This document shows positions 2,412 to 19,495 of a stretch of DNA of 24,865 nucleotides, piece by piece. The notes under the pieces are model-generated. The model had not been told where the DNA came from. It made no database searches and was given only the letters and a program-made list of their open reading frames with translations. Where the stretch lies: the NCBI GenBank assembly GCA_033851885.1, contig JAWWOJ010000067.1, positions 1 to 24,865 on the forward strand, in the 5' to 3' direction. How positions within the stretch are numbered: the first letter of the stretch is position 1; the number at the start of each line of letters is the position of its first letter. The position numbers and the translations under genes were made by a program. This DNA is from Frankiales bacterium (GTDB taxonomy: Bacteria > Actinomycetota > Actinomycetes > Mycobacteriales > SCTD01).

Positions 2412-4033
2412 CGGAACGCCCCGAACGACTCGGCGCCCCGCACCTCGGCGGAGTGGCAGGCGCTCAAACACAGCCCGACCACGGTGCGGGTGTCGCGCGG
2501 GTCGATCACGCCGTCGTCGACGCCCCGCCCACTGGCGTACATCGCAAGCGACTGCCGCTCCTGCACCTCCGCGACGGTGTCCGTGATCACCTTCTCCAGC
2601 GCCTCGTCGACCTGTTCGCCGCGCCTGGCCGCCTGGGCGCGACGGACGATCGACATGACACCGGCGATCTGCTGCGGGCCCATGACGGCGACCTTCGCCG
2701 TCGGCCAGAGGAAGACGAACCGGGTGCCGAAGCCGCGGCCGCCCATCCCGTAGTTGCCGGCGCCGTAGGACGAGCCGAGGATGATCGTCACGTGCGGCAC
2801 CGCGCTGTTGGACAGCGCGTTGATCATCTGACTGCCCCACTTGACCATGCCGGCCTGCTCGTAGTCCCGGCCGACCATGTAGCCCGTGATGTTCTGCAGG
2901 AACACCAGCGGAGTCGAGGTCTTGTTGCAGAGCTGGATGAACTGCGAGGCCTTCTGCGACGACTCCGGGAAGAGCGGGCCGTTGTTGCCGAGGATGCCGA
3001 CCGGGTAGCCGTGGACCTCGGCCCAGCCGCAGATCAACGTGGTGCCGTAGCGCGCCTTGAACTCCTCGAACCGGCTGCCGTCGGTGACCCGGCCGATCAC
3101 CTCGCGGACGTCGAGGGGCTGCCGCAGGTCCTGCGAGATCAGACCGAGCAGGTCTTCGGCCTCCAGCACCGGGGGGTCAGCGGGACCGGTCGGCCCGGGT
3201 CCGCTCTTGCGCCAATGCAGGTGCCCGACGATGTCGCGGGCCTGCCGGATGGCGTCGAGCTCGTCCTCGGCGAGGTAGTCGGCGAGGCCGCTGACAGCCG
3301 CATGCATCTCGGCGCCACCGAGCTCCTCGTCGGTGGACTCCTCACCCGTCGCGACCTTCACCAGCGGCGGGCCTCCGAGGAAGACCTTGGCCTGGTCCTT
3401 CACGAGGATCGTGTAGTCGGACAGGCCAGGCATGTACGCCCCGCCGGCCGTCGAGCTGCCGAAGACGATCGCGATGGTCGGGATGCCGAGACCCGAGAGC
3501 ACCGTGGTCTCGTAGAAGAAGCCACCGGACCCGGCGAAGTGGAACGTCGAGCTCTTCAGGATCTCCTCGATGTCACTGCCGCGGGGGCGCAGGTCGCCGC
3601 CGGCCGACTCGATGAGCTGCACGTAGGGCATCCGGTTCTGCTTGGCGATCTGCAGCGCCCTGTCGATCTTCGGGATGCTCGTCTGCGTCAGCGCGCCACC
3701 GAGCACCGTCGGGTCGTGGCCGAAGATGACGCACTCCGTCCCGTTGATGCTGCCGATCCCGACGAGGGCGCCGCCGCCGACCGGGTAGTCGGTGTAGAAG
3801 CCCGCCAGCGCGCCGATCTCGAGGAACGGCGTGTCCGGATCGATGAGCACCGCGACCCGCTCCCGCACGGTCAGCTTGCCCGCGGCCTTGTGCCGCCCGA
3901 CGGCCTTGTCGGTGCCGCCCTGACCGGCCAGCTGCAGCTGCTCGTCGAGCTTCTCGAGCTGGCCCAGCATGTCCTCGCGGTTCTTGATGTAGGCCTCCGA
4001 CGCACGGTCGACGGCCGTGCCCAGCACGGTCAT
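2408..4033 (-). CDS. Acyl-CoA carboxylase beta (carboxyltransferase) subunit, AccD2/AtuC-like
   Basis: GKLTVRERV, DPTVLGG, FGSSTAGGAYMPGLSD, GGPPLVKVATGE, LGGAEMH, QNITGYMVG, SYGAGNYGM, DDGVIDPRDTR motifs. Start ATG at 4033 overlaps the upstream TGA (ATGA). Adjacency to an atuA-like gene supports the AccD2/AtuC subgroup. Confidence 0.93.
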   Translation of the reverse strand: MTVLGTAVDRASEAYIKNREDMLGQLEKLDEQLQLAGQGGTDKAVGRHKAAGKLTVRERVAVLIDPDTPFLEIGALAGFYTDYPVGGGALVGIGSINGTECVIFGHDPTVLGGALTQTSIPKIDRALQIAKQNRMPYVQLIESAGGDLRPRGSDIEEILKSSTFHFAGSGGFFYETTVLSGLGIPTIAIVFGSSTAGGAYMPGLSDYTILVKDQAKVFLGGPPLVKVATGEESTDEELGGAEMHAAVSGLADYLAEDELDAIRQARDIVGHLHWRKSGPGPTGPADPPVLEAEDLLGLISQDLRQPLDVREVIGRVTDGSRFEEFKARYGTTLICGWAEVHGYPVGILGNNGPLFPESSQKASQFIQLCNKTSTPLVFLQNITGYMVGRDYEQAGMVKWGSQMINALSNSAVPHVTIILGSSYGAGNYGMGGRGFGTRFVFLWPTAKVAVMGPQQIAGVMSIVRRAQAARRGEQVDEALEKVITDTVAEVQERQSLAMYASGRGVDDGVIDPRDTRTVVGLCLSACHSAEVRGAESFGAFR

Positions 4034-4815
4034 GCCGCCCCCAGTGGCGCGCGACCGGTGCCGGCGGGACCCGCGTAGGCCTGCGCGATGCGCGCCCACT
4101 GCGCGGCGGTGTCGCCCTCGATGGTCAGCGTGACGTCGTCGAGGTGCCGGCGCTGCGTGACGAGCAGCGCGAAGTCGAGAGCCGGCCCGGCGATGCGGTC
4201 GGTCGCGTGCTCGGGACCCCACTGCCCCGCACCGGGTCCGGTGAGCTCGACCCGTACGGGTGTGTCCGGGTTCTCGACCCCGTGCACCAGGTAGGCGAAC
4301 GACCGGGCCTGCACGCCGATGTGGCAGATGTGCCGCAGCCGGTCGCTCGTGACCGGCTCGAGTCCGAGCGCGTCTGACACGTCCTGTCCGTGCGCCCAGG
4401 TCTCCATCAGCCGGGCGCTGGCGAAGCTCGCGAGGCTCATCGGCGGCCCGTACCAGGGCACGCGGGCCGCGGGGTCGGCCTTGTCGAGGGCGGTCAGCAG
4501 CGCGGACCGGCCCCGGCGCCAGTCCTCGAGCAGGTGGCCACCGGAGTTGTCGCGTCCGAACAGCACGTCCGCCCCCGGCTGCACGCCGCCGCTCAGCATC
4601 GCGTCGACGTGCTTGGTGAACGCGGGCCCGTCGACGAGCGCCAGGATCGCCGTACCGTCGAAGTAGTGGAGGTGGCTGACGCAGTCCGCGACGTCCCAGC
4701 CCTCGGCCGGCGTCGGGGTGCGCCACCGCGTCTCGGACAGGTCGGCGACGCGCGCGTCGAGTGCGGCGTGCTCCGCCGCCAGGTCGTGCAACAGCGAACT
4801 GAGATCGGGCTTCAT
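4030..4815 (-). CDS. TIGR03084-family / DinB-like (mycothiol maleylpyruvate isomerase N-terminal domain) metal-binding protein
   Basis: DLAAEHAALD...WRTPTPAEGWDVADCVSHL, WYGPPMSLASFASARLMETWAHGQD, VTQRRH, IAQAYAGPAG match this family. ATG at 4815 has GGAGG 11 nt upstream; the alternative GTG start is 4833. Confidence 0.85.
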   Translation of the reverse strand: MKPDLSSLLHDLAAEHAALDARVADLSETRWRTPTPAEGWDVADCVSHLHYFDGTAILALVDGPAFTKHVDAMLSGGVQPGADVLFGRDNSGGHLLEDWRRGRSALLTALDKADPAARVPWYGPPMSLASFASARLMETWAHGQDVSDALGLEPVTSDRLRHICHIGVQARSFAYLVHGVENPDTPVRVELTGPGAGQWGPEHATDRIAGPALDFALLVTQRRHLDDVTLTIEGDTAAQWARIAQAYAGPAGTGRAPLGAA

Positions 4816-4964
4816 CCGGCGGTGATCCTCCACGTGTCGGCTGCGTCACATCCTGCCCCGCCGCTACTCGGCGGTAGCAACGGGCTGGGACAGGGCTCGA
4901 CGACGGGCCTGCGTGGCGGTCACGTGCGTGCCCAGGTCCGGCGCGGTGACGATCGGCACATGAG

Positions 4965-5942: not shown

Positions 5943-5962
5943 TGATGCAGTATACATTCTGC
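5943..5962. promoter_or_regulatory. Putative GntR/FadR-type operator upstream of the P450
   Basis: TGA-TGC-AGTATACA-TTC-TGC, 11/14 match; overlaps a TACATT (TANNNT) candidate -10 at 5953-5958. Confidence 0.55.
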
Positions 5963-7331: not shown

Positions 7332-9680
7332 GTGACAGGTGCCTTCAGCGGCCTGGACGTGCTCGAACTGACCTCGGGGGTCGCCGGACCCATGGTCGGC
7401 ATGATGCTGTCCGACCAGGGAGCGCGCGTGACCCGGGTCGAGCGACCCGATGACCTCTTCGCCGACCTCCCGGGGTACCGGGTCTGGAACCGCGGCAAGC
7501 GCAGCGCCACCCTCGACCTACGCCACGACGCCGACCGTCAGGTGCTGCTCGCACTGCTCCGGGACGCAGACGTCCTGATCGACTCGCTGCGCCCGGGCGC
7601 CATGGAACAGCTGGGACTCGGCCCACAGCAGCTGAGCGCCCTCAACCCGCGGCTCGTCAGCTGCTCGGTCACCGCCTATGGGGAGGGAAACGAACACAGC
7701 GACAGGCCTGGCTATGAAGCCCTCGTCGCCGCCCGCACCGGTGCGCAATGGGCGCAACGCGGCGGCATCATGTCCCATGGAGACCTCGGTGTGCCCGACG
7801 TGCCCATCCCCGACGGTGCCGAGCAGGCTGCGCGCGCGGACGGGCCGCTGTTCAGCGCCTCACCCTGGATGAGCCTCAACGGCTTCTATGCCGCGACGCT
7901 CGCGATCGCTGCCGCACTCGTGGCCCGTGAACGAACCGGCATCGGGCAGCACATCGAGGCGTCGATGCTGCCGCGTGCGTCGTTCGCTCCGGCACTGCCG
8001 GCGGGCGGTGCCACGGGCGGGACGTGGATGAACCTGCGCGGCGCACCGCGAGGCCTGTTCGAGTGCCAGGACGGCCGATGGGTGCACCAGTGGCCGATCA
8101 AGCCGCTGTCCGTCGTGCAGGCGGCCGAGCACGACCGCCTCGAGGACGCAGCCGCCCCGGAGTACACGCACCGGCGGGTGGACCCGAGCCGGATCGGCAT
8201 GGAGCCCGAGAACATCATCGTCTTGTTCCACTACCTCCCGCTCATGCAAGAGGCGTTCAAGAAGTTCCCGGCTGAGGACTGGCGACGCTGGGCCGAGCGG
8301 GTCCACGAGGGCGTCCAGATCGTCCGCAGCCCCGAGGAGGCCCTCTCCGACCCGACGCTGCTCGACGAGGGTCTGGTCGTGCGTGTGCAGGACCCCGACC
8401 TGGGAGACATCCGGCACGTCGGTGTCCTCACGGAGCTGAGCCGCTCGCCCGGCGCGGTCCAGGGGCCGGCTCCCCGTCGCGGCGAGCACACCGCGCTGGT
8501 CCGGCGAGACGCCGCGACGTCGGCCGCGGCGACCGCTGAGGCATCTCCAGCCCGGGTCCAGCGCGCGCCCGTCAGCAAGCCGCTTCACGGTGTGCGGATT
8601 CTCGACATCGGGCTCGCGCTCGCCGGGCCCTATGGCTCCTCGCTGCTCGCCGACCTGGGCGCGGACGTCATCAAGATCAACGCACCCTGGGACGGGCCGT
8701 GGCTCGCGACCGGGATCGGACAGCTGGCCAACCGCGGCAAGCGCAGCGTCCTGCTGAACCTGGGCAAGCCCAACGGCCTGGCCGCCTTCGACGAGCTCGT
8801 CAAGACCGCCGACGTCGTCACACACAACATGCGCTGGGGCGTCGCCGAACGGATCGGCGTCGGCTACGACGACGTGCGCGCGGTGAAGCCCGACATCATC
8901 TACGCGGCCAGCCGAGGGTTCGACCGTGCCCGGTCCGCCGCCAACCTTCCCGGTACCGACCAGTCGGCTTCGGCGCTCGCCGGCCAGGAGTGGGAGGACG
9001 GCGGATGCGGACGAGGCGGACGCCCCTTCTTCGGCACCTCGTTCGGAGACCTCGGCAACGGGTTCCTCGTGGCCATCGGGATCGTCTCGGCCCTCTACGA
9101 CCGGCAGCGCACCGGCGAGGGCCAGGAAGTCGGCTGCTCCATCCTCGGAGCCTGTCTCGCCACGTCGTCGGGCACCTTCGCGTTCCCGGACGGCAGCGGA
9201 CCTGACCACGCCCGTCTCGACGACCTCCAGCTCGGCTTCTCCGCGCTGTACCGCCTCTACGAGACAGCCGACGGGTGGCTCTGCCTGGCCGCCCTCACCC
9301 CCGAGCACTGGGCGGCGCTCTGCACCACCCTGGGTTGCGAGGACCTCCTCACCGACGCGCGCTTCGTGGACCCGGCCAGCCGGCTGTCCAACGACGAGGA
9401 TCTCGGCAAGCGCCTCGGTGATGTCCTGACCTCCCGGAGCGCCGCCGACTGGCTGAGCGTGCTGGACCGGGCCGGCGTCCCGGCCGAGGTGTCGAAGCCA
9501 GGCTTCGCGAGCACCGCGTTCCAGCGCCCGTACCTCGAGTTCTCAGCGACGCCCGCCGCGCCTATCGGCTTCGCGCCGGCGCTCGGCGCGCACACCGATG
9601 AGGTGCTCGCGGAGCTCAGCCTCCCGGCGGATGTGCGCGCCGCGGTACATACCGAGTGCCTGGACCGGTCCCGAGCATGA
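7332..9680 (+). CDS. Family III (CaiB/BaiF) CoA-transferase with two tandem CaiB-like repeats
   Basis: Two copies of the family signature: (1) LDVLEL..GP...NRGKRS..LDL...ADVLIDSLRPG; (2) VRILDI..AGP...LGADVIKI...NRGKRSV.LNL...ADVVTHNMR. Both are followed by RxRTGxGQ. Likely start is GTG 7332 after a G-rich SD. Confidence 0.92.
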   Translation: MTGAFSGLDVLELTSGVAGPMVGMMLSDQGARVTRVERPDDLFADLPGYRVWNRGKRSATLDLRHDADRQVLLALLRDADVLIDSLRPGAMEQLGLGPQQLSALNPRLVSCSVTAYGEGNEHSDRPGYEALVAARTGAQWAQRGGIMSHGDLGVPDVPIPDGAEQAARADGPLFSASPWMSLNGFYAATLAIAAALVARERTGIGQHIEASMLPRASFAPALPAGGATGGTWMNLRGAPRGLFECQDGRWVHQWPIKPLSVVQAAEHDRLEDAAAPEYTHRRVDPSRIGMEPENIIVLFHYLPLMQEAFKKFPAEDWRRWAERVHEGVQIVRSPEEALSDPTLLDEGLVVRVQDPDLGDIRHVGVLTELSRSPGAVQGPAPRRGEHTALVRRDAATSAAATAEASPARVQRAPVSKPLHGVRILDIGLALAGPYGSSLLADLGADVIKINAPWDGPWLATGIGQLANRGKRSVLLNLGKPNGLAAFDELVKTADVVTHNMRWGVAERIGVGYDDVRAVKPDIIYAASRGFDRARSAANLPGTDQSASALAGQEWEDGGCGRGGRPFFGTSFGDLGNGFLVAIGIVSALYDRQRTGEGQEVGCSILGACLATSSGTFAFPDGSGPDHARLDDLQLGFSALYRLYETADGWLCLAALTPEHWAALCTTLGCEDLLTDARFVDPASRLSNDEDLGKRLGDVLTSRSAADWLSVLDRAGVPAEVSKPGFASTAFQRPYLEFSATPAAPIGFAPALGAHTDEVLAELSLPADVRAAVHTECLDRSRA

Positions 9681-9720
9681 CGGACACACCCTGACCGGCA
9701 ACCGACCAGCAAGGAGAGCC

Positions 9721-10797
9721 ATGCCAGAGCGACTCATCTCCGCCGACTCCCATGTCCGCATCACCGCAGACTGGGTACGCGAACGGCTACCCGTGCAAGC
9801 GATCGACTCCTACAACGACGCCGTCGCGACCTTGGAAGCGATCGAGCTCGAACAGCGCGGCGGGAAGCGCCAGCAGTTGGAGGACTTCGCAGACATGGCC
9901 CCCGGCGCGGCCGACCCGGGCTACTGGGACCCGAAGGCCCGACTCGCGGCCATGGACCGTGACGGCGTGCACGCCGAGGTCCTGTACTCGGAGCTGAGCG
10001 CGTTCCGCCAATTCCCACTCGCCGGAGAACACTGGAAGGAGGTCGCCCGCGCCTTCAACGACTCGCTGGCCGACTTCTGCAGCATCGACCCGACCCGCCT
10101 GGTCGCCAGCTACCAGGTACCGATCCTCGACATCGACCACGCCGTGGCCGAGGTCCAACGTCTCGCCGCCCTGGGGGCGCGGTCGGTGCACCTCCCCAAC
10201 TACCCCGCGGAGCTCGGCCATCCTGACTACTTCGACAGCCGCTACGACCCGTTGTGGGCGGCGCTGTCGGAGACCGACCTGGTGATCAGCCAGCACATCG
10301 GGCTGAAGAACACCCTGTTCGACGTCTACGTGCGCGACCCAACGCCGTACAAGAGCATCTTCACGTCGTTGCCGACCCTCATGCTCGTCGAGAACATCTC
10401 GTTCTGGATCATGACAGGTCTGCTGGAACGGTTCCCGGCACTGCGGATCGCGTTCGTCGAGCCGGGCATCGAGTACGTCGTGATGTGGCTACGTCGTCTG
10501 GACGGGCAGTTCAAGCACAGCGGCGAGCGGTTGTTCCCGGGCGTCAAGAAGTTGCCGAGCGAGTACTTCCGCGAGCAGATGTTCCTGACGTTCGTGGGCG
10601 GTGACAGCGAAGGCCTCAGCCTGCGACACGAGGTCGGAGTGGAGAACATCCTCTGGTCCACCGACTTCCCGCACCCGGGTTCGAGCTGGCCGCATTCCCG
10701 CGAGAGCGTCGACCGTCTCTTCGTTGACATACCTCCCGACGAACGGCAGCTCATCGTCGCCGGGAACGCGTCACGCCTGTACGGGTTGTCGGCCTGA
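9721..10797 (+). CDS. Amidohydrolase_2-family metal-dependent enzyme (hydrolase/hydratase/decarboxylase; substrate unknown)
   Basis: ISADSHV N-terminal metal motif, MDRDGV.AEVLY, YDPLWAAL, HIG, GLLERFPALRIAFVE, WSTDFPH. SD AAGGAG lies 4 nt before ATG 9721. Confidence 0.92.
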   Translation: MPERLISADSHVRITADWVRERLPVQAIDSYNDAVATLEAIELEQRGGKRQQLEDFADMAPGAADPGYWDPKARLAAMDRDGVHAEVLYSELSAFRQFPLAGEHWKEVARAFNDSLADFCSIDPTRLVASYQVPILDIDHAVAEVQRLAALGARSVHLPNYPAELGHPDYFDSRYDPLWAALSETDLVISQHIGLKNTLFDVYVRDPTPYKSIFTSLPTLMLVENISFWIMTGLLERFPALRIAFVEPGIEYVVMWLRRLDGQFKHSGERLFPGVKKLPSEYFREQMFLTFVGGDSEGLSLRHEVGVENILWSTDFPHPGSSWPHSRESVDRLFVDIPPDERQLIVAGNASRLYGLSA

Positions 10798-10817
10798 CCG
10801 AGTTGGAAACCGACGAG

Positions 10818-11219
10818 ATGCAGCGCCCGGCACCTTCGATCACGCGCGACACCGCGTTCTACTGGGAGGGTGCCGGACGGGGGGAGCTGCTCATCCAGGA
10901 CTGCGGCAGGTGCGGTGTCCTGTGCCACCCGCCCGCGCCGCTGTGCCCCAGCTGCCACAGTCCACGGCGCACCGTCAAGCAGATGTCAGGGCGCGGACGG
11001 CTGACGAGCTTCATCATCATCCATCACCCCCCGATCCCGGGGTTCGAGCTGCCGATCGTCGTCGGCACGGTCGAGCTCGAGGAAGGTCCACGGGTGACGA
11101 CGAACATCTGCGACGCCGCACGGGACGAGCTCGAACTCGGGATGCCCGTCGAGGTGTTCTTCGCCGCCACCGCCGAGGAAGCGTTGGGCGTGCCGCTGTT
11201 CCGTCCCGTGCGCGCGTGA
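10818..11219 (+). CDS. DUF35 Zn-ribbon/OB-fold protein (ChsH2 C-terminal-like), probable partner of the downstream aldolase
   Basis: FYWEG...GELLIQDCGRCG..HPP..CPSC (CxxC...CxxC), VELEEGPRV, GMPVEV.F. Start ATG 10818 preferred over TTG 10803. Confidence 0.92.
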   Translation: MQRPAPSITRDTAFYWEGAGRGELLIQDCGRCGVLCHPPAPLCPSCHSPRRTVKQMSGRGRLTSFIIIHHPPIPGFELPIVVGTVELEEGPRVTTNICDAARDELELGMPVEVFFAATAEEALGVPLFRPVRA

Positions 11220-12331
11220 GCACCACCCGGCCGCTGGACGCTGCGATCGTCGGGATCGGGCAGACCGAGTTCTCCAAGGATTCCGGTCGCAGCGAGCTGC
11301 AGCTCGCCGCGGAGGCCAGCCTGGCAGCGCTTGCCGACGCAGGGCTGGGCGTCTCCGACATCGACGGCATGGTGACGTTCAGCGTCGACCCGACCGAGGA
11401 CGTCGAGCTCATGCGTGTGCTCGGCGTCCCGTCGCTCGGATACTCCGTCCGGCTCCCGCACGGCGGCGGCGGATCGGGCGCGACCGTCTACCACGCAGCC
11501 GCGGCGCTGGCGACCGGCGCCGCCCGGCAGGTGCTCGTCTACCGGGCCCTGAACGCGAGGTCAGGCCGTCGGTTCGGGCAGCCGCGAGACCCCGCCGCGG
11601 CGCCCAGCGTCGGCTCCGGTTGGTCGTTCGCGCAGTGGCACGCGCCCTACGGAGCCCTCACACCCGCCGCGACACTGTCGATGCACGCCATGGCGTTCAT
11701 GCGCTCCCACGGGCTGTCGAACGAGGACTTCGCCGAGTATGTCGTCGGCATCCGTGACTTTGCGGCGACCAACCCGAGCGCGTGGTTCCACGGCCGGCCG
11801 ATCACGCTCGAGGAACACCAGGCGTCGCGCTGGATCATCGAACCGGTCCTGCGGCTGCTGGACTGCTGCCAGGAGACCGACGGCGGTGTGGCCTTCGTCG
11901 TCAGCACCCTCGAACGGGCGCGCGACCTGCAACAGCGGCCCGCCGTCGTACTCGGGGCGGCTCAAGGGGTGGGAGCCGGCGATGTTGCCGGCCGCGTGTA
12001 CGCGCAGGCCGGTGTCGGACCCTCGGACCTCGACGCTGCCATGGTCTACGACGCGTTCTCCGTCGAGGTGTTCAGGAGTCTCGAGGACCTGGCCTTGTGC
12101 CCGCGAGGCGAGGTCAAGGACTTCGTGGCGAGCGGTGCGATCCGGCGGGGCGGGATCGTACCGGTGAACACGAATGGCGGCCTGATCGGCGAGGGCTACC
12201 TGCACGGGATGAACCTGCTGACCGAGGCGGTACGGCAGGTGCGCGGGACAGCAGCCAACCAGGTGGCAGGCGCCCGTCACGTCCTGATGAGCTCAGGTCG
12301 CGGTGCATGCATCCTGGGAGGCGAGACGTAA
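11216..12331 (+). CDS. Ltp2-like lipid-transfer protein / thiolase-superfamily acyl-CoA aldolase
   Basis: AAIVGIGQTEFSKDSGRSELQLAAEA..AALADAGL, YRALNARSGRRFGQ, LDCCQETDGG, NTNGGLIGEGYLHGMN, EAVRQVRG; no canonical thiolase catalytic Cys. GTG start overlaps the DUF35 stop (GTGA). Confidence 0.9.
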   Translation: MSTTRPLDAAIVGIGQTEFSKDSGRSELQLAAEASLAALADAGLGVSDIDGMVTFSVDPTEDVELMRVLGVPSLGYSVRLPHGGGGSGATVYHAAAALATGAARQVLVYRALNARSGRRFGQPRDPAAAPSVGSGWSFAQWHAPYGALTPAATLSMHAMAFMRSHGLSNEDFAEYVVGIRDFAATNPSAWFHGRPITLEEHQASRWIIEPVLRLLDCCQETDGGVAFVVSTLERARDLQQRPAVVLGAAQGVGAGDVAGRVYAQAGVGPSDLDAAMVYDAFSVEVFRSLEDLALCPRGEVKDFVASGAIRRGGIVPVNTNGGLIGEGYLHGMNLLTEAVRQVRGTAANQVAGARHVLMSSGRGACILGGET

Positions 12332-12342
12332 GCCGACCGTCA

Positions 12343-12369
12343 GAGCTGGCGTGGCGCGCGCCAGTGCTC
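12343..12369. terminator. Possible bidirectional terminator hairpin (no U-tract) between convergent genes
   Basis: CTGGCG (12346-12351) pairs with CGCCAG (12359-12364), extendable by GAG/CTC with a 2-nt bulge. It lies between the stops at 12331 (+) and 12368 (-). Confidence 0.35.
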
Positions 12370-12553
12370 AGGACCTGGTGAAGATGCGTCGCAGACCGTC
12401 GGACCAGCTCCATCCTGCGGGGGCCGCTCGGTGGCCAGTCTGCCGGCCGGCACCGGTCGCCCGCGTCAGGGCTCGGCGCCGGGCGCTGGACGGCCAGTGC
12501 TCCGTCGCCGGATGCCCCTGCCGCAGCGCGTACTCGCGAGCAAAGTGACGCAT
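12368..12553 (-). CDS. Small hypothetical protein (61 aa)
   Basis: AGGAGGT SD 7 nt upstream of the ATG. It fills the gap 27 nt downstream of the LivG-like gene on the same strand. Confidence 0.6.
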   Translation of the reverse strand: MRHFAREYALRQGHPATEHWPSSARRRALTRATGAGRQTGHRAAPAGWSWSDGLRRIFTRS

Positions 12554-12580
12554 CTGACCGACCTCCTGATCACGAGCCCG

Positions 12581-13399
12581 CTAAGTCACGCCTTTGCCGG
12601 TTGCGGTCGAGCCGCCCTCGGCACCCAGGTAGGCGGCCTGGACTGCTGGGTCCCGCTGGACCTGCGACGGCGCTCCGGACGCGATGAGACGCCCGAAATC
12701 GAGCACATGCACGGTGCTGCAGATACGCATCACCAGCTCCACGTCGTGCTCGACGATGAGCACCGCTGTCCCGGTCGCACTCGTCTCGACGAGCAGCTCG
12801 CCCAGCGCAGCGCTCTCGGTCCCGTCGAGGCCTGAGCCAGGCTCGTCGAGCAGGAGCAGGGACGGGCGGGTAGCCAGCGCGCGACCGAGCTCGACCAGCC
12901 GGGCCAGACCGGTCGGAAGGCCGTCGACGCGTTCGCCGGCCACCTCCCGTAGACCCACCCTGTCGAGGATGTCGTCGGCGACCCGGCGCGGGTCACTGCC
13001 ATCGCGCGCCCAGCCCCGTCGGAACTCCGCGGCGGCGAGGATGTTGTCGAGCGCTGTGAGGCTGCCGAAGACCTCGAGTCGCTGGAAGGTCCGCGCCATG
13101 CCCATCCTGGCGCGGCGGACCGGAGTGCGTGCCGTGATGTCGCGCCCGCGCAGCACGATGCGGCCGGCGTTCGGTGTCTGCAGGCCGGTGATGACGTTGA
13201 ACAGCGTGGTCTTTCCCGCGCCATTCGGCCCGATCAGCCCGGTGACCTCACCCGCCTGCACGGACAGGCTGACCGCGTCCAGTGCCCGGACGCCGCCGAA
13301 GGCCACCGACACGTCATGGACCTGCAGCGCCGGGTCCGCATGCTCGTCGCCCCAGCCGTCAACCGCGCTCGGCGCGCTCAAGGTCGTCGTCCGCCTCAC
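12581..13399 (-). CDS. livG: ABC transporter ATP-binding protein, LivG/BraF-like
   Basis: Walker A GPNGAGKT, ARTFQ, Walker B LLLLDEP, H-loop VEHD, C-terminal VQAAYLG. Start (GTG 13399) is uncertain. Confidence 0.92.
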   Translation of the reverse strand: MRRTTTLSAPSAVDGWGDEHADPALQVHDVSVAFGGVRALDAVSLSVQAGEVTGLIGPNGAGKTTLFNVITGLQTPNAGRIVLRGRDITARTPVRRARMGMARTFQRLEVFGSLTALDNILAAAEFRRGWARDGSDPRRVADDILDRVGLREVAGERVDGLPTGLARLVELGRALATRPSLLLLDEPGSGLDGTESAALGELLVETSATGTAVLIVEHDVELVMRICSTVHVLDFGRLIASGAPSQVQRDPAVQAAYLGAEGGSTATGKGVT

Positions 13400-13432
13400 C
13401 CCTTGCTCGGAGCACTCCGCAGAATGCAGTGT

Positions 13433-13452
13433 GCATGTTGTATATCTGATTT
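13433..13452. promoter_or_regulatory. Putative GntR/FadR-type operator (degenerate copy)
   Basis: GCA-TGT-TGTATATC-TGA-TTT, 11/14 to RCA-N3-TGTATACA-N3-TGY; overlaps the predicted start site of the adjacent promoter. Confidence 0.5.
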
Positions 13453-13480
13453 ATTCTGAAGGCTGCGTAGCCGATGTCAA
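13453..13480 (-). promoter_or_regulatory. Putative sigma70/SigA promoter upstream of the livG-like gene
   Basis: On the minus strand: TTGACA (13480-13475), 16 nt, CAGAAT (13458-13453), within an AT-rich patch of a GC-rich sequence. Confidence 0.55.
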
Positions 13481-13509
13481 GCGGTCTCGGGACGGCCGTA
13501 GGTGGTCGG

Positions 13510-13950
13510 TCAGGGAGCGGCGGTGCGGCCCGGCGCTCGGTCGCGGCGCGAGGACGGGGCCGCCAGCGCCTGCAGGGCCTCATGCACCCGGTCCAGGCTG
13601 GCGAGCAGCTGCTGGTCGCGCTCGGCCTGGCGGCGGCTCTCGGCTCGACGCTCCTCCGCGGCGAGCACCTCCCAATGGCCGAAGTAGAGGAAGCCGCCGA
13701 GGATGATCAGCCCCAGCCCCACCAATCCTCCGGAGGCGAGGTACGGCAGCTGGTCGAAGACCAGCGTCGTGTGCGCGACACCCCAGTAGCCGAGTGCCAG
13801 GAACACCAGACCGAGGGGAATCGCCACCGAGCCGGCGGCGAAGAACACCTGCGACAGCGTCCAGCGGCGGACGCCGTCGGTCTCGGCCGCGATGCGCCGC
13901 ACCAGAAAGCTGTGCCGGCTCTGCGTGCCGGGTTGTTCGAGCGTCGTCAT
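13510..13950 (-). CDS. Hypothetical membrane protein (2 TM helices + C-terminal coiled coil), 146 aa
   Basis: Hydrophobic segments FFAAGSVAIPLGLVFLALGYWGV and LASGGLVGLGLIILGGFLYF, separated by DQLPY; charged tail EERRAESRRQAERDQQLLASLDRVHEAL. ATG overlaps the upstream stop (TGATG). Confidence 0.85.
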   Translation of the reverse strand: MTTLEQPGTQSRHSFLVRRIAAETDGVRRWTLSQVFFAAGSVAIPLGLVFLALGYWGVAHTTLVFDQLPYLASGGLVGLGLIILGGFLYFGHWEVLAAEERRAESRRQAERDQQLLASLDRVHEALQALAAPSSRRDRAPGRTAAP

Positions 13951-15272
13951 CACGAGACCTCCCACGGGCATCGTCCAGTCGCCGTTGCAAAGGCCGTCGG
14001 CAGCCGACGGAGGTAGCCCAGTCCCAGCACGAGGGCGGCCGCGATGCCGGCGAGCAGCCACCCGATGGCAAGCGGACCGGGGATCGCAGGCAGCTGGGTC
14101 GACGCCGCGTTGACCGGGGCGATGGCAGGGCCGACGCCTCCCGCGGCGAGGGTGGGCTGGGTGACGGGGCCGCCCACGTTCGGCTGCGGCGCGACCTGGC
14201 CGGTCGACCCGGGGGAGCCCGGGAGCGTCGGCGGCAGGGCCGTCGAGGGCAGGTCTCCGGTGGTCGGCACGACGTAGCCCGGCACGGCGGACGCCGCGGC
14301 GGACGCTCCTCCGAGGGTGACGACGATCTTCTCGTGGGTGTTCGGCCCACCGGGCGCCGGCGGTGGCATCCACGTCACCACGAGGGTGGCTGCCACATAG
14401 CTCGCGGTGCCCGCCGTGGTTGAGGTGGTGGGACCGATGAGCGCGATGGTCATGCCGAGGTTGCGGAGCGCCGTGTTCACGGTCTGCTGCGCCTGACCTG
14501 GAAGCGCCTGACTCGCGCTGGCGGCATGTACGCCGGAACCGTCGATCGCGACGGGCAGCCCTGCGACAGTGGCTCCTGAGACGATGGTGGATCCCGACCC
14601 GGTCGCCTTGCGACCATCGCTGACGACGGACGCCGAGGAGCGGACGGAGGCGATGCTGACGGCACCACCCGCCAGCGTGAAGTCGTGCAGGCTGCCGGTG
14701 GACGTTGCCTTGGCCGTCGAGGCGCCGACCAGCACCGTGGAGCTGTCCGCGCTGGTGTTGCCGAGGGCCAGAGCTGCCGACGCCTGCGCCCCCTGCAGGT
14801 GCGCGGACGCCGAGGCTGACGCCGGATGCGAGTCCGCGAGCAGGGTCATACCCGGGTAGCTCTTGTTGCTCACGCTGCCCTCGTTGTTCTTGGCCTCGGC
14901 GCGGACCGGATCGTCAAGAACGCTCGCCTGGTCGGGCACCTGGCCGCCGCTCGCCCCGATGAGCAGGGTCCCGAGGTTTCCCGCGAGCGCCCCCGGCCAC
15001 ACGGCGCTCGACAGCGCGTAGGAGCCGCCGGTGCTGCCGAGGGTGCTGACCGCCTCGGGCAGGTCACCCTCGGCCTCGGGATGGGCGGTCGCCCCGTCGT
15101 TGTCCTCGGTGAAGCTGAGGGTCGGAGCGTTGGCGGAGAGCCGGTAGGACGCGAAGCCGGACCCGGGTTCGACGGCCGCGTAGGCCGTCGAGGTCCCAGC
15201 TGGGATCAGAGGCGGCACGGCGATGGCCGCGATGATCAGGCCAGTCGGTGCACACCAGCGAATCGATCTCAT
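13950..15272 (-). CDS. Secreted, C-terminally membrane-anchored Ala/Ser/Gly/Thr-rich protein (resembles the choice-of-anchor P type of actinobacterial proteins), 440 aa
   Basis: Signal peptide ending AYA-A; long stretch with alternating beta-strand patterns; Pro-rich stalk; C-terminal TM LAIGWLLAGIAAALVLGLGYL followed by RR. GGAGGAG SD and ATGA overlap with the livF stop. The family name is from recollection, not a search. Confidence 0.8.
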   Translation of the reverse strand: MRSIRWCAPTGLIIAAIAVPPLIPAGTSTAYAAVEPGSGFASYRLSANAPTLSFTEDNDGATAHPEAEGDLPEAVSTLGSTGGSYALSSAVWPGALAGNLGTLLIGASGGQVPDQASVLDDPVRAEAKNNEGSVSNKSYPGMTLLADSHPASASASAHLQGAQASAALALGNTSADSSTVLVGASTAKATSTGSLHDFTLAGGAVSIASVRSSASVVSDGRKATGSGSTIVSGATVAGLPVAIDGSGVHAASASQALPGQAQQTVNTALRNLGMTIALIGPTTSTTAGTASYVAATLVVTWMPPPAPGGPNTHEKIVVTLGGASAAASAVPGYVVPTTGDLPSTALPPTLPGSPGSTGQVAPQPNVGGPVTQPTLAAGGVGPAIAPVNAASTQLPAIPGPLAIGWLLAGIAAALVLGLGYLRRLPTAFATATGRCPWEVS

Positions 15273-15991
15273 GCCACTCCTCCGAGATAGGCGGCCGCGA
15301 GCTCCGCTGCGATGTCCACGGGATCACCCACGGCCCGGATGACACCTGACGTCATGATCGCCGCGTGGTCGGCGACGGCAAGGGCTGTCTGGGCGAACTG
15401 CTCCACAAGCAGGATGGCGAGCCCGTCCGCGGCGAGCTGTGCGACGAGCTCGTAGAGCTCGGCGACGATGCGCGGCGCCAGCCCCATGCTGATCTCGTCG
15501 AGGAGCAGCAGGCCCGCATCGGCCACGACCGCGCGCGCCACCGCGAGCATTTGCTGTTCGCCGCCGGACATCGTGCCGGCGAGCTGCCGCCTGCGCTCCT
15601 TCAGTCGCGGGAACCGCGCGAACACCATGTCCTCGATCTCGGACAGGGACCGGCTGGTGCCGTGACTCCAGAGCTTCAGGTTGTCTCGGACGGTGAGGTT
15701 GGCGAAGACCCCACGCCCTTCCGGGATGCTGCACACGCCCCCGCGCACGAAAGCCTCCGGCGGAAGCCCGTTGACGTGTCGGCCGCCGACATGGACGCAG
15801 CCGGCTGTCGGCACCACGCGGCCACTGGCCACCGCCAGCGTCGTGGTCTTCCCGGCACCGTTCGGTCCGAGAAGGGCGACGACCGAGCCCGGCGGCACGA
15901 CCAGGTCCACGGTGTGCAGCACCTCGATCCGGCCGTAGCCCGCGCGGACGTCGATGAGCTCGAGGGCCGGGATGTCGGCGTCGGCGCTCAC
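15269..15991 (-). CDS. livF: ABC transporter ATP-binding protein, LivF/BraG-like
   Basis: VRAGYG, GPNGAGKT, PEGRGVFANLTV.DNL, AGTMSGGEQQMLA, LLLDEISMGLAP, LLVEQ. GTG start overlaps the permease stop (GTGA). Confidence 0.94.
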   Translation of the reverse strand: MSADADIPALELIDVRAGYGRIEVLHTVDLVVPPGSVVALLGPNGAGKTTTLAVASGRVVPTAGCVHVGGRHVNGLPPEAFVRGGVCSIPEGRGVFANLTVRDNLKLWSHGTSRSLSEIEDMVFARFPRLKERRRQLAGTMSGGEQQMLAVARAVVADAGLLLLDEISMGLAPRIVAELYELVAQLAADGLAILLVEQFAQTALAVADHAAIMTSGVIRAVGDPVDIAAELAAAYLGGVA

Positions 15992-17877
15992 AGGACACCG
16001 TCGCGCAGCGGCGAAGGACGGATGACCACGCTGGCAAGGGCACCACGGCCGGCCTGGCGGGCGGCGGCAAAGCGACGTGACGCCTCCCCCACGATGCCGT
16101 AGGGATTGCGCCCGATGCTGACGGCTCCGAGCCCGGTCAGCAGCAGCGAGGCCTGGCTGAGAAAGGACACGTGCTCGGCAATGATCGGGAACGCGCTGAA
16201 CAGGACGGCCCCGAGCAAGGCTCCGCTGACGGTGGACGCCCCTCCGATCGTCAAGATGAGCAGCAGGACGAGGCTGTTGAGCATCTGGAAGTCGTTCCCG
16301 CTCACGAGTCCTTCCTGCCCGCCCAGCAACACTCCACCCAGGCCGGACATCGCTGCGGCGCCGGCGAAGACGCCGAGCTTCGTCCGGTTGACGCCGACGC
16401 CGAGCGTGACGCACGCGGCGGGGCTGTCATTCAGCGCTGACATCCGCCGCCCGACTCGGGAACGCCGCAGACTCAGCAGCCCCACGGCGCCGGCCGCGAA
16501 CGCCAGCGTGAGCAGGATCAGGTAGCCGCGGTTGCTGTCGACACCTGGCACGGACAGCCGGGGCACGGTGATCGCACCTCCGGTGCCGAAGGCGTTCAGG
16601 AAGAAGATCGTGTCCATGCCCGACGCGAACGCGAGTGTCGCGAGCGCGAGGTACAGGCCGCGAAGGCGCAGGACCGGCACTGCCACAGCAACGCCCAGCA
16701 GCGCGCACACCGGTACGACGACCAGGATCCCGAAAGCCGATCCGCCGGGCGCGACCTTGGCCATGACGTAGGCGCCGACCCCGACGAACGTGAGCTGGCA
16801 CAGCGACACCTGGCCGGCATACCCGCTGAGGAGGACGAGCGACAGCAGTACGAAGCCGATGGCCAAGGTCGAGGACAGGAAGTCGACCAGGCCACCCGGT
16901 GCGAGGGCGGCGGCCAGCAGAGCCACGACGAGCAGGAGCGACGACCAGCGGACGGACTCGCCCAGGCCGACGGCCCGCGGACTCCAGCCCACGATGCGGC
17001 CACCGGCCCGCAGGCGCGTGTCGCGAAGGAAGACGACCGCCACGAACAGCAGGAACATCGGCAGCGCCGGCCGCAGCAGGTTCGGCAGGTCTCCGCCGAG
17101 ATAGCCCGTCGAGTAGGACTCGGCCAGCCCCAGGGCAAGCCCGCCGACGGCAGTCAAGGGAAGGCTGCGCAGCCGGCCGACGACGGCCGCGGCGTAGCCG
17201 TTGATGACCAGGAGCGTCAGCGTCAGGATGCTCAGCGTCACCAAGGGCGCGAGCAGGATGCCGGCCAGGGCGGCCAGGCTGGAGCCGAGCGCCCACGACA
17301 GCTGGCTGGCGCGTGCCGGCGAGGTCCCGGTGAGTGCGACCAGTCCTGGGTCATCGACAACTGCGCGCATCGTGGCACCGGTCCGGGTGCGCGCGAGGAA
17401 GACCCGCAGTGCGACCGCGACCAGTAGCGACACGAGCACCACGATCGCCTGGTGGGCGCTGACGTTGACCCCCGGCAGATGGATCAGGCTGTTGGGGAAG
17501 AACGGCTTGAGCACCCTGGGGGTCACCGGGCTCCAGATCAGGTTCGCTACCCCGATCAGTGCGAGCAGCAGCCCGACCGTCACGACGAGCGTGACGCTCA
17601 ACGACGCTCCGTAGAGCCGCCGGATGAGCACCCGCTCCACGACAGCGCCGAGCAACGGCGCCACCACCAGCAGGACGAGTGCCAGAGCGGCAAGGGGCGG
17701 GACGTGCCACGCCACGGTCAGCTGCCAGTAGGTGAAGGCCCCCAGCATGCCGAGCGCTCCGTGGGCGAAGTTGAAGATGCCTGACGTGGCGTAGGTGACC
17801 ACCAGGCCGGACGCCGTGATGGAGTACACGCAGCCGTAGACGATGCCGGCGACGCTCAGGGCGAAGAAAGTTCCGAT
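15988..17877 (-). CDS. Fused LivH-LivM branched-chain-amino-acid-type ABC permease (about 629 aa)
   Basis: N-half: GIVYG..YSITASGLVVTY..SGIFNFAHG, RTGATMRAVVDD. C-half: GYAGQVSLCQ..F.G.GAY, LRLRGLYLALATLAF, S..GRR..AL.D. The conserved hydrophobic N-terminus extends upstream of the track's GTG (17829) to an ATC at 17877 placed 5 nt after AGGAG. Confidence 0.92.
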   Translation of the reverse strand: MGTFFALSVAGIVYGCVYSITASGLVVTYATSGIFNFAHGALGMLGAFTYWQLTVAWHVPPLAALALVLLVVAPLLGAVVERVLIRRLYGASLSVTLVVTVGLLLALIGVANLIWSPVTPRVLKPFFPNSLIHLPGVNVSAHQAIVVLVSLLVAVALRVFLARTRTGATMRAVVDDPGLVALTGTSPARASQLSWALGSSLAALAGILLAPLVTLSILTLTLLVINGYAAAVVGRLRSLPLTAVGGLALGLAESYSTGYLGGDLPNLLRPALPMFLLFVAVVFLRDTRLRAGGRIVGWSPRAVGLGESVRWSSLLLVVALLAAALAPGGLVDFLSSTLAIGFVLLSLVLLSGYAGQVSLCQLTFVGVGAYVMAKVAPGGSAFGILVVVPVCALLGVAVAVPVLRLRGLYLALATLAFASGMDTIFFLNAFGTGGAITVPRLSVPGVDSNRGYLILLTLAFAAGAVGLLSLRRSRVGRRMSALNDSPAACVTLGVGVNRTKLGVFAGAAAMSGLGGVLLGGQEGLVSGNDFQMLNSLVLLLILTIGGASTVSGALLGAVLFSAFPIIAEHVSFLSQASLLLTGLGAVSIGRNPYGIVGEASRRFAAARQAGRGALASVVIRPSPLRDGVL

Positions 17878-17930
17878 GATGGCTCCTGGTCAGGATCTGG
17901 GCATGGCCGTCCGACACGACTGGTCGGCTG

Positions 17931-19376
17931 CTAGCCCGTGCGGAAGAACGTGCCGTCGCATCGATAGCTGCTGGCAGGACTGTCGACGCGCACGAAGGCG
18001 CCGTTGACGACCTTGGTGAGCACGTAGCAGGTCGCGGCCTGCTTCTTAGCCGGTCCGCCCGGCGCAAGGATGTTGTCCGAGAACGTGGGGATGCCACCCA
18101 GGGCCGCCAGCAACGCCGGCCTGGTCAGCTTGGCGCCGGCCTTGCGTGCCGCCTGGACGAACAGCTCAGCCTGCGCCCACCCGTAGACGGAGAACAGGTC
18201 GAGCGCCACGCCGGGCGCGGCCGTGCCCATCCACTTCTGGTAGAGGGCGACCTCCGGGATGCGCGCCGCGTCGTCCTTGTTGAAGTAGAGGGCACTTGGC
18301 GTGTCGGTGTAGAGACCCTCGACCGAGGAGCCGCCCTGGCTCAGCGTCCCCTGGTCGTAGCCCTGCCCCGGTGTGGTGATCACTGGCTTGAAGCCTTGCT
18401 GGGCCGCGGCGGCCATGAAGTTCGCGATGATCGGTGGATTCGCGAGGATCTCGACGAACTTCACGTTCTTCTGCTTCATCTGGATGACGTCGGAGGTGAA
18501 GTTGCTGTCCGTCGCGGCCACCGCCCGCTCGTACACCACCTTGTAACCCAGATGCTGCATGGTCGCCTTGGCGTTGTCGTAGGCCGACTTGGCGCTGGGG
18601 CTGTTGACGTAGAGGGCGCCCGTCGTCTGGTAGGCGTTACCGAACTTCGCCTTGTAGTACTCGAAGGCGCCGGTCCTGAAGCCCGGCGTCACCGGCTGCA
18701 CGGGGAACGTGTTCTTCAGCGCCGTGTGGTCGGGATTGATCGCCATCGAGACGTCTGCGACGCCAGGCGAGGCCTTGATGGCCTGCGCTCCGCAGTAGTC
18801 GTAGATGGAAAAGCTGCCGACGAGGGCGAAGTCCTTCTTGATGGCGTCCTGCGTGACCTTCTCGTTGGTGGTGCAGCTGAAGGCGTCGTCCTTGCCGTCC
18901 ACCTTCAGGGTGCGCCCGTACAGCCCCCCTTGGCTGTTGACGTACGCGAAGTACGCCTTGGTGCCGGCGATCGCGCCCTGAAAGAGTCCGGGGACGGGTC
19001 CCGAGAGTGTCGCGACGGTCCCCACTGTGACGGAGGTCGCCGTGACCCCGAGCGCGGTCGCGCCTCCGTTGCCACCGGGCCCCTTCGGGGTTCCGACCAG
19101 TGGTCCGGTGCTGCCCGTGGTGCCGCCCGACCCGCCCGACCCGGGGAGGTTGCCCCCCGTCGCACCACCCCCCGCACCGGTGGTGCCGGTCGTGCCGCCG
19201 TCCCCGGGACCAGCGGTCGCGCTCGGTCCCGCGCCACTGCCGACCTGGTTACCGGCTCCGCCGCCGAGCGCGGCTCGCGCGGCTTGCTCGTGCAGCGCCG
19301 AGTCCGTCATCGTCCCGCAGCCTGCCAGCGCCATCGCGACCCCGACCGCCGCGGCGAGGCTAGTGCGAACCCTCAT
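17931..19376 (-). CDS. ABC transporter substrate-binding lipoprotein (LivK/periplasmic binding protein type 1 fold) with a long Gly/Thr-rich tether
   Basis: Lipobox LAG-C after MRVRTSLAAAVGVAMA; GVTATSVTVG...SGPVPG, AYFAYVNSQGGLYGR.L..D..DD, FTSDVIQMK, YGWAQAELFVQA. Start ATG 19376 (alternative 19385). Confidence 0.93.
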   Translation of the reverse strand: MRVRTSLAAAVGVAMALAGCGTMTDSALHEQAARAALGGGAGNQVGSGAGPSATAGPGDGGTTGTTGAGGGATGGNLPGSGGSGGTTGSTGPLVGTPKGPGGNGGATALGVTATSVTVGTVATLSGPVPGLFQGAIAGTKAYFAYVNSQGGLYGRTLKVDGKDDAFSCTTNEKVTQDAIKKDFALVGSFSIYDYCGAQAIKASPGVADVSMAINPDHTALKNTFPVQPVTPGFRTGAFEYYKAKFGNAYQTTGALYVNSPSAKSAYDNAKATMQHLGYKVVYERAVAATDSNFTSDVIQMKQKNVKFVEILANPPIIANFMAAAAQQGFKPVITTPGQGYDQGTLSQGGSSVEGLYTDTPSALYFNKDDAARIPEVALYQKWMGTAAPGVALDLFSVYGWAQAELFVQAARKAGAKLTRPALLAALGGIPTFSDNILAPGGPAKKQAATCYVLTKVVNGAFVRVDSPASSYRCDGTFFRTG

Positions 19377-19446
19377 CGACGCCATCACCTTCGGTAGAGA
19401 CTCTGGGTTTCTGCCACCGTCCGGGCCTGTCACAGGTAACAGAGCG

Positions 19447-19466
19447 GCAACTTGTATACAAAATGC
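19447..19466. promoter_or_regulatory. Perfect spaced palindrome, putative GntR/FadR-type operator
   Basis: GCA-ACT-TGTATACA-AAA-TGC, containing the 10-bp palindrome TTGTATACAA (19452-19461). It abuts the -10 box of the SBP promoter. Confidence 0.75.
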
Positions 19467-19495
19467 ACCTTACGCACGCCATCCGGTTGTGACAA
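19467..19495 (-). promoter_or_regulatory. Putative sigma70/SigA promoter of the ABC operon
   Basis: On the minus strand: TTGTCA (19495-19490), 17 nt, TAAGGT (19472-19467; TANNNT). Confidence 0.65.

Follow-up and report, generated by a model that had tools for sequence, protein, structure and literature searches.

The window analysed here is a stretch of 24,865 nucleotides from a Frankiales bacterium (contig JAWWOJ010000067.1, assembly GCA_033851885.1), whose minus strand carries the gene cluster of a Liv-type ABC importer together with two further genes for membrane proteins of 440 and 146 amino acids. These genes and their products are designated p440 and p146; homologues of both were labelled 'hypothetical' in every source examined. 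Comparison of related loci gave good support to the view that p440 and p146 are dedicated companions of this type of importer, and both are probably unrecognised parts of the importer machine. ABC importers dependent on a substrate-binding protein (SBP) are usually described with four or five parts, and most known examples of ABC machines with extra integral subunits belong to the unrelated Mce/Mla and Lpt systems. The sources searched yielded neither a paper on p440 or p146 nor a name or family model for them, and no Liv-type importer with such partners, an absence that applies to those sources and is not proof.

Association of p440 and p146 with Liv-type importers

Species-representative genomes were scanned with p146 patterns derived from eight sequences, yielding 80 loci that spanned the Acidimicrobiia, Mycobacteriales, Frankiales, Propionibacteriales, Streptosporangiales, Catenulisporales and Micromonosporaceae. 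Cultured carriers include Nocardioides marmoriginsengisoli, N. limicola, Aeromicrobium panaciterrae, a Catenulispora species and Actinospongicola halichondriae. Sixty-one of these loci, all from other Actinomycetota, had at least 7 kb of upstream DNA. In all 61, p146 was immediately preceded by a p440 homologue and the operon included a fused permease gene; an SBP gene was present in 59 and both ATPase genes were present in 51–52. A further 13 of 13 loci with less flanking DNA also contained p440. Distant homologues of about 30% identity from metagenomes, including those of Acidimicrobiales, were found in public assemblies in the same neighbourhood in three gene orders (i.e. after livF, before the permease gene, and with the SBP gene at either end). 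Every p146 or p440 match in four near-complete genomes lay within 3 kb of a BPD_transp_2 gene, with the pair being carried by approximately 3 of the ~18 BPD_transp_2 permease loci per genome. In the genome from which the window derives, p440- or p146-like genes were detected on about nine contigs, and a fused permease and Liv-type ATPases adjoined them wherever this was testable. The first-pass annotation of this DNA had proposed that the two genes are dedicated to the transporter, a proposal that these loci bear out; it had also named homologues lying mostly outside ABC operons as an outcome that would refute this, and the neighbourhood comparison did not refute it, as no copy turned up away from ABC genes in these genomes.

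The relationships of the permeases were examined using a tree built on their LivM-like half, with sequences taken from two near-complete genomes and from the carriers in the window's own genome. The carrier label required 5 changes on this tree as compared to 12.0 after shuffling, and none of 500 shuffles gave a value as low. Eleven of the 15 carriers fell inside one 13-row clade, which has a well-supported 9-row core whose only two non-carriers are located ~6 kb from a carrier operon. By this phylogenetic measure, the pair-carrying permeases were shown to be a coherent lineage. In a sample of the phylum comprising 301 genomes from 204 genera, the p146 family was found in 59 genomes and in 49 genera; the genome count includes three unpublished genomes (G045, G092 and G131), each having a match, and is 56 of 298 without them. 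These comparisons showed that pair and transporter are inherited together, over large distances and despite rearrangements, with p146 always following p440.

Coding status and gene order of the cluster

The source assembly is a fragmented metagenome-assembled genome from soil (601 contigs, 87% completeness). As the G+C content of the window is ~70%, open reading frames (ORFs) were judged by their codon-position composition. Six minus-strand genes, which together span 12581–19388, each had a third-position G+C of 0.86–0.90 (Table 1). Values for p440 (0.86) and p146 (0.89) were like those of the flanking ABC genes, indicating that both are real coding frames. Direct reading of the junctions gave GTGA for permease/livF, where the GTG start of livF overlaps the permease stop, ATGA for livF/p440 and TGATG for p440/p146, the latter two exactly as described in the first-pass annotation. 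A Shine-Dalgarno-like GGAGG precedes both p440 and p146. Judged from these overlaps, the junctions are translationally coupled, with p440 being coupled to livF, whilst livG is uncoupled from the rest of the cluster by the 110-nt spacer that separates it from p146. The gene order of the window (i.e. SBP, fused permease, livF, p440, p146, livG) was also present in a second species of the genus with 97% protein identity, and the livF/p440 and p440/p146 junctions were covered by independent soil-metagenome contigs with zero differences. Sixteen studies included soil metagenome runs with DNA near-identical to positions 12368–19495, and at least half of the sampled words were present in four of them.

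Table 1. Positions of the importer genes and associated elements in the window
Feature	Position	Strand	Description
Operator-like palindrome GCAACTTGTATACAAAATGC	19447..19466	none	Upstream of the SBP gene; perfect match to GCANNNNGTATACNNNNTGC
Substrate-binding lipoprotein (SBP)	17931..19388	-	Peripla_BP_6 (PF13458), E 7.6e-38; lipobox LAGC
Fused LivH/LivM-type permease	15988..17877 (first canonical start 17829)	-	Two BPD_transp_2 stretches
LivF-like ATPase	15269..15991	-	ABC_tran; LivF model 6.6e-53, UrtE 2.7e-53
p440	13950..15272	-	Signal peptide, predicted all-beta ectodomain, Pro/Gly-rich stalk, C-terminal membrane helix
p146	13510..13950	-	Predicted two-helix membrane hairpin with long cytoplasmic extensions
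Spacer before livG, 110 nt	13400..13509	-	TTGACA promoter-like site and operator half-site GCATGTTGTATA (13433-13444)
LivG-like ATPase	12581..13399	-	BCA_ABC_TP_C tail; LivG model 3.6e-57; at the 3' end of the cluster
61-aa ORF	12368..12553	-	Gene status unsupported by composition, families or genome relatives

As many long spurious ORFs are expected in high-G+C DNA, both extra genes could be artefacts of G+C-rich sequence or of misassembly. This explanation is already refuted and its probability is negligible: the codon-position composition of p440 and p146 is gene-like, hundreds of homologue clusters exist, both proteins gave confident structure models, and the identical order occurs in the second species and in the independent metagenome contigs. 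The 61-aa ORF, which had been listed as the last member of the cluster, fared differently from the six genes. Its composition was not gene-like (second-position G+C of 0.73, third-position G+C of 0.79), and it had no Pfam or NCBIfam match and no relative in its own genome.

The commonest order among the 61 loci was SBP, permease, livG, livF, p440, p146 (37 loci), followed by the same order with the SBP gene last (11 loci) and by an ATPase-free order of SBP, permease, p440, p146 (9 loci, mainly Acidimicrobiia). None of the 61 placed the pair between the two ATPase genes. As this arrangement was otherwise confined to the one sister species, and other loci of the same genus as that species had the common order, the position between the ATPases was attributed to a local relocation of livG and not to the design of the family. 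The first-pass description of the pair as lying between the ATPases thus holds for the window but not for the family, where the usual place is after both. The relocated livG appears, from the motifs in the spacer, to have its own promoter and operator half-site.

Further layouts were recorded. The module often lacks ATPase genes in Acidimicrobiia (loci L086 and L117 of genome G041, L127 and L128 of genome G044, and also L033, L036, L041, L060, L063, L065 and L066), and the opposite strand carries, at a distance of ~6 kb, another fused permease that is closely related to the first. These permeases may share ATPases or the accessory pair. On other contigs of the window's genome, C314 (903–5483) carries an SBP gene, a p146-like gene without a zinc ribbon, a gene for a small protein with two transmembrane helices (2-TM) and a zinc-ribbon motif, and a permease gene, with no p440-like gene; on C39 livF is followed directly by a p146-like gene; and C457 carries a p440-like gene of the same layout that is too divergent for the profile.

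Components of the importer and alternative roles for the pair

Family assignments of the core components were made using Pfam and NCBIfam models. A Cluster-B SBP, LivH/LivM-type permease domains and both LivG- and LivF-type ATPases were all present, the Peripla_BP_6 match of the SBP spanning the full profile. All curated equivalog models for Liv/Urt components scored far below their cut-offs, and the LivG- and LivF-model matches of both ATPases were likewise below the equivalog cut-offs. By domain content the cluster is a HAAT (Liv-type) ABC importer, and it is probably a member of a distinct subfamily. It shares with LivKHMGF/HAAT systems (TC 3.A.1.4) a Peripla_BP_6 SBP, LivH- and LivM-like BPD_transp_2 domains, a LivG with a BCA_ABC_TP_C tail and a LivF, but differs in having fused permease halves, two further conserved membrane proteins, a long-tethered SBP and catabolic CoA-pathway genes as neighbours.

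The SBP starts at GTG 19388 or ATG 19385. Between the lipobox cysteine and the folded domain lies a tether of ~80–100 Gly/Thr/Ser/Pro-rich residues (18990–19320; residues about 24–118), and low-complexity tethers rich in Gly, Ser, Thr, Pro and Ala were observed in 37 of 48 related loci (80–155 residues; median of 95). The nearest solved chains were 7ylt (E 7.9e-8) and 4n03 (E 3.3e-7), with LivJ at 4e-4; the code 7ylt is cited in a paper on the auxin-specific SBP IadK2 (PMC10374108).

The permease is one protein of 613–629 amino acids, similar to LivH/UrtB in its N-terminal half and to LivM/UrtC in its C-terminal half. The frame upstream of the first ATG, GTG or TTG codon reads IIGTFFALSVAGIVYGC, a conserved first membrane helix, and invariant glycines were found inside this N-terminal extension on alignment of 42 homologues. 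As the conserved helix precedes GTG 17829, the true start is probably a non-canonical codon near 17877. An assembly error in this region was discounted since contigs of two independent soil runs were identical there. On the minus strand between 17829 and 17907, an AGGAG occurs just before ATC 17877 and a four-codon mini-ORF ends just upstream.

No Pfam or NCBIfam model was matched above threshold by the p440 protein of the window. Its predicted layout comprises a signal peptide, an all-beta ectodomain of ~300 amino acids, a Pro/Gly-rich stalk of ~60 residues, one C-terminal membrane helix and a tail. An alignment of 29 members contained a conserved EPGSG at the mature N-terminus, the motifs WPG and LNDPVRAEA, and a short RRLP...C-P tail. 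LPXTG and LAXTG were absent from the C-terminus in this alignment, where only a loose LPxG-LS stretch was seen, and a sortase-type sorting signal was rejected on the absence of LPXTG. The AF2 model had a pLDDT mostly above 85 in blocks across residues ~40–330 (lower at 61–70 and 91–120) and consisted almost wholly of long antiparallel strands, with a helix at 402–429. A Foldseek comparison with the PDB returned porin walls alone (TM-score <0.25), and a wide VIA-align search gave a maximum Z of 6.3 on barrel walls, TamB and lipovitellin sheets; all of these were rejected as relatives and taken to be generic long beta-sheets. As modelled, p440 is without a convincing solved structural relative.

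The predicted structures that looked like p440 belonged to uncharacterised proteins anchored through LPXTG or PEP-CTERM. Among 29 relatives of p440, 13 matched NF040603 (i.e. choice-of-anchor P) at E≤0.01 over the central beta region, the best with 37 bits against a cut-off of 27, and the p440 of the window did not match this model even at E≤10. From these profile matches p440 was read as a distant branch of the choice-of-anchor P surface-domain family, for which no described function was found in the literature and family sources searched. As in that family, the p440 domain precedes a C-terminal anchor; in p440, however, a plain membrane helix followed by a conserved cytoplasmic tail serves as the anchor, and the family is tied to HAAT operons.

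These likenesses raise the alternative that the pair is a surface-protein cassette, with a role in adhesion to hydrophobic particles or in wall organisation, which is co-transcribed with the importer without contacting it. The sortase- and PEP-CTERM-anchored fold relatives, which have no known tie to transport, favour such a cassette; a complex prediction that scored 0.00 (described below) was regarded as evidence neither way for it. Since the association with one permease lineage persists through several gene orders and across classes, p440 is translationally coupled to livF, and no copies away from ABC genes turned up in the genomes that were examined, this alternative was considered quite improbable.

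The p146 protein of the window was likewise without a match above threshold in Pfam or NCBIfam; sub-threshold matches to T2SSM and MnhG reflect its membrane helix and coiled coil. The AF2 model (pLDDT of 87) contained two long helices (residues 10–59 and 64–130), and the predicted topology is a membrane hairpin with both ends reaching into the cytoplasm. At E≤1e-3 the family comprises 674 or more representative clusters, and its conserved core on alignment is the hairpin motif G..W.GAAHT..FEQ.PY.ISGG. A minimal Ser-His intramembrane protease, as might be read from ISGG and AAHT, was rejected because the histidine varies to N, R, E, Q and S. As some paralogues have p146 without a p440-like neighbour, p146 was judged to be the more constant partner.

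Most p146 homologues end in a zinc-ribbon-like domain of ~45 amino acids with the pattern H-x3-C...C-x2-C (i.e. CHCC) and the consensus LVAT..G...HR..C......C..C.P (e.g. residues 215–277 of P0046, and the copies on contigs C30 and C472 of the window's genome). This domain weakly resembles DUF6233 (best 21 bits, cut-off of 27.6) and Ada_Zn_binding (E 0.17), both falling short of the Pfam cut-off. Its absence from p146 of the window and from the copy on contig C14 indicates that it is not essential.

The main alternative to a part in transport is that p146 has a regulatory or coupling role. The pair would then form a device outside the transport path, in which p146 reports or gates the state of the transporter, p440 provides an extracellular input and the zinc-ribbon-like domain acts as the output. 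Intramembrane-sensing histidine kinases are partners of ABC transporters, and BceAB is an exporter-type ABC transporter paired with the sensor BceS. Structural look-alikes of p146 in the Atlas include the 2-TM-plus-helix part of small histidine kinases (TM-score of 0.61 by query), and the hairpin with its long cytoplasmic helix thus resembles the N-terminal part of the intramembrane-sensing kinases. The presence of a cytoplasmic CHCC domain in most homologues and the occurrence of p146 without p440 in some paralogues also fit a regulatory role. As in BceAB-BceS pairs, an ABC transporter is adjoined by the gene for a small 2-TM protein that has a long cytoplasmic helix and almost nothing by way of an extracellular loop, but p146 lacks kinase domains and the transporter of the window is an SBP-dependent importer. 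The likeness to the kinases is one of topology and spans two helices alone; neither HisKA nor HATPase_c domains were found in p146 or its longer homologues, nor was any other output domain recognised. With the zinc-ribbon-like domain also missing from the window and C14 copies, and with TetR genes being common neighbours and more obvious regulators, a regulatory device was considered unlikely.

Proposed mechanism, cargo and neighbouring genes

Our preferred interpretation, which we hold to be reasonably probable, is that the cluster represents a distinct HAAT subfamily in Actinomycetota, with the usual parts, two dedicated membrane partners, and the mechanism and cargo proposed here. The hairpin helices of p146 would extend ~25–40 residues into the cytoplasm, lying against the permease and/or reaching the ATPases. 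The C-terminal helix of p440 would fix this protein in the membrane, probably beside p146, and the beta-sheet domain would be displayed on the ~60-residue stalk, with the SBP on a comparable flexible tether. From the stalk and the tether it is proposed that the two ectodomains act at some distance from the membrane, inside the wall or past it, where p440 may capture a poorly soluble substrate or organise the SBP for hand-over. The cargo would most likely be a carboxylic acid that is then CoA-activated (e.g. fatty, alicyclic or terpenoid-derived) and not leucine, isoleucine or valine.

Several points weigh against this interpretation. A control-free complex prediction for the permease, the p440 anchor (residues 395–440) and p146 gave a score of 0.00, which speaks neither for nor against contact, and the binding of p440 and p146 to the permease is something that we infer. 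The 80 loci were collected with p146 patterns of one subfamily and are a biased sample, with many coming from related lineages. No RNA runs containing the window stretch were found. Long SBP tethers were recorded without a control set of pair-less operons, every match of the SBP to solved structures was weak, and the cargo was deduced from the neighbouring genes alone. Moreover, since its fold relatives bear LPXTG or PEP-CTERM anchors, the p440-type domain is not specific to transporters.

A broader interpretation was also considered, in which the pair defines an unrecognised architecture of SBP-dependent importers, widespread in Actinomycetota, with obligate hairpin and wall-spanning, C-terminally anchored beta-sheet subunits. 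The beta-sheet subunit would collect poorly soluble organic acids at the cell surface for transfer to a long-tethered SBP, as a Gram-positive counterpart of Mce/Mla made of different parts; this was viewed as doubtful and is put forward tentatively. Like MlaFEDB/Mce systems, the window combines an ABC core with an anchored beta-rich extracytoplasmic protein and a further accessory protein, and may share their association with hydrophobic cargo. Conversely, its permease is of the BPD_transp_2 and not the MlaE/YrbE type, an SBP is present, and p440 is anchored by its C-terminus and not its N-terminus. The Pfam/NCBIfam scan detected neither an MCE domain nor an MlaE-type match in p440, p146 or the permease. 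The comparison with Mce systems made in the first-pass annotation is therefore useful as an analogy but not as an assignment of membership.

If p440 and p146 are subunits of the importer, many annotations of 'branched-chain amino acid transporter' in Actinomycetota would be wrong in both cargo and composition, and a new route for hydrophobic carbon sources through the Gram-positive envelope would be testable in cultured Nocardioides, Aeromicrobium, Catenulispora and Actinospongicola. The two protein families, nameless in the sources searched, are tied to one lineage of Liv-type importers, which in soil bacteria adjoin catabolic genes of fatty-acid-like and terpenoid-like type.

Genes flanking the 80 loci were examined for evidence of the cargo. 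The commonest families were acyl-CoA dehydrogenase (32 loci), SDR (26 loci), TetR (21 loci), acyl-CoA synthetase (15 loci), enoyl-CoA hydratase (14 loci) and luciferase-like monooxygenase (11 loci). The neighbours were enriched for beta-oxidation-type genes and TetR regulators. In the window itself, AtuA and biotin-carboxylase/carboxyltransferase genes of the Atu/Liu type are present, as are genes for an esterase, a P450, an amidohydrolase and a double family-III CoA-transferase. A DUF35 protein is encoded next to a thiolase-like partner, and further genes encode a thiolase and an SDR. CoA-activated organic acids were favoured over branched-chain amino acids because of these neighbours and of the non-LIV solved relatives of the SBP. 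A cargo of lipid, steroid or terpenoid type had been suggested; a CoA-activated, non-amino-acid organic acid is plausible from the gene content, and the evidence identifies no lipid, steroid or terpenoid.

The palindrome upstream of the SBP gene is centred on GTATAC. A copy with two mismatches was located at 5943–5962, before the P450 gene, and the half-site motif had 6 matches as compared to 0.4 expected. No operator-motif match was found before the SDR/FabG-like gene. Co-regulation with the catabolic genes through a shared operator is thus partly supported by these motifs: the copy before the P450 gene and the half-site before livG agree with it, but its extension to the SDR/FabG-like gene is not borne out.

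Other features of the neighbouring DNA were recorded. The minus strand between 2 and 5278 carries an acyclic-terpene/leucine-type cluster, with AtuA being cut by the window end, a carboxyltransferase, and a biotin carboxylase in which BT_MCC_alpha and biotinyl domains are present; at 4030–4833 there is also a mycothiol-dependent maleylpyruvate-isomerase-like gene. The region 9598–12331 contains an amidohydrolase_2 gene, a stand-alone DUF35 gene (10803–11219) whose product has a ChsH2-like zinc ribbon and OB fold, and a thiolase-like (Thiolase_C_1) gene. The DUF35 and thiolase-like pair is of the SCP-x/Ltp type, as in side-chain cleavage systems.

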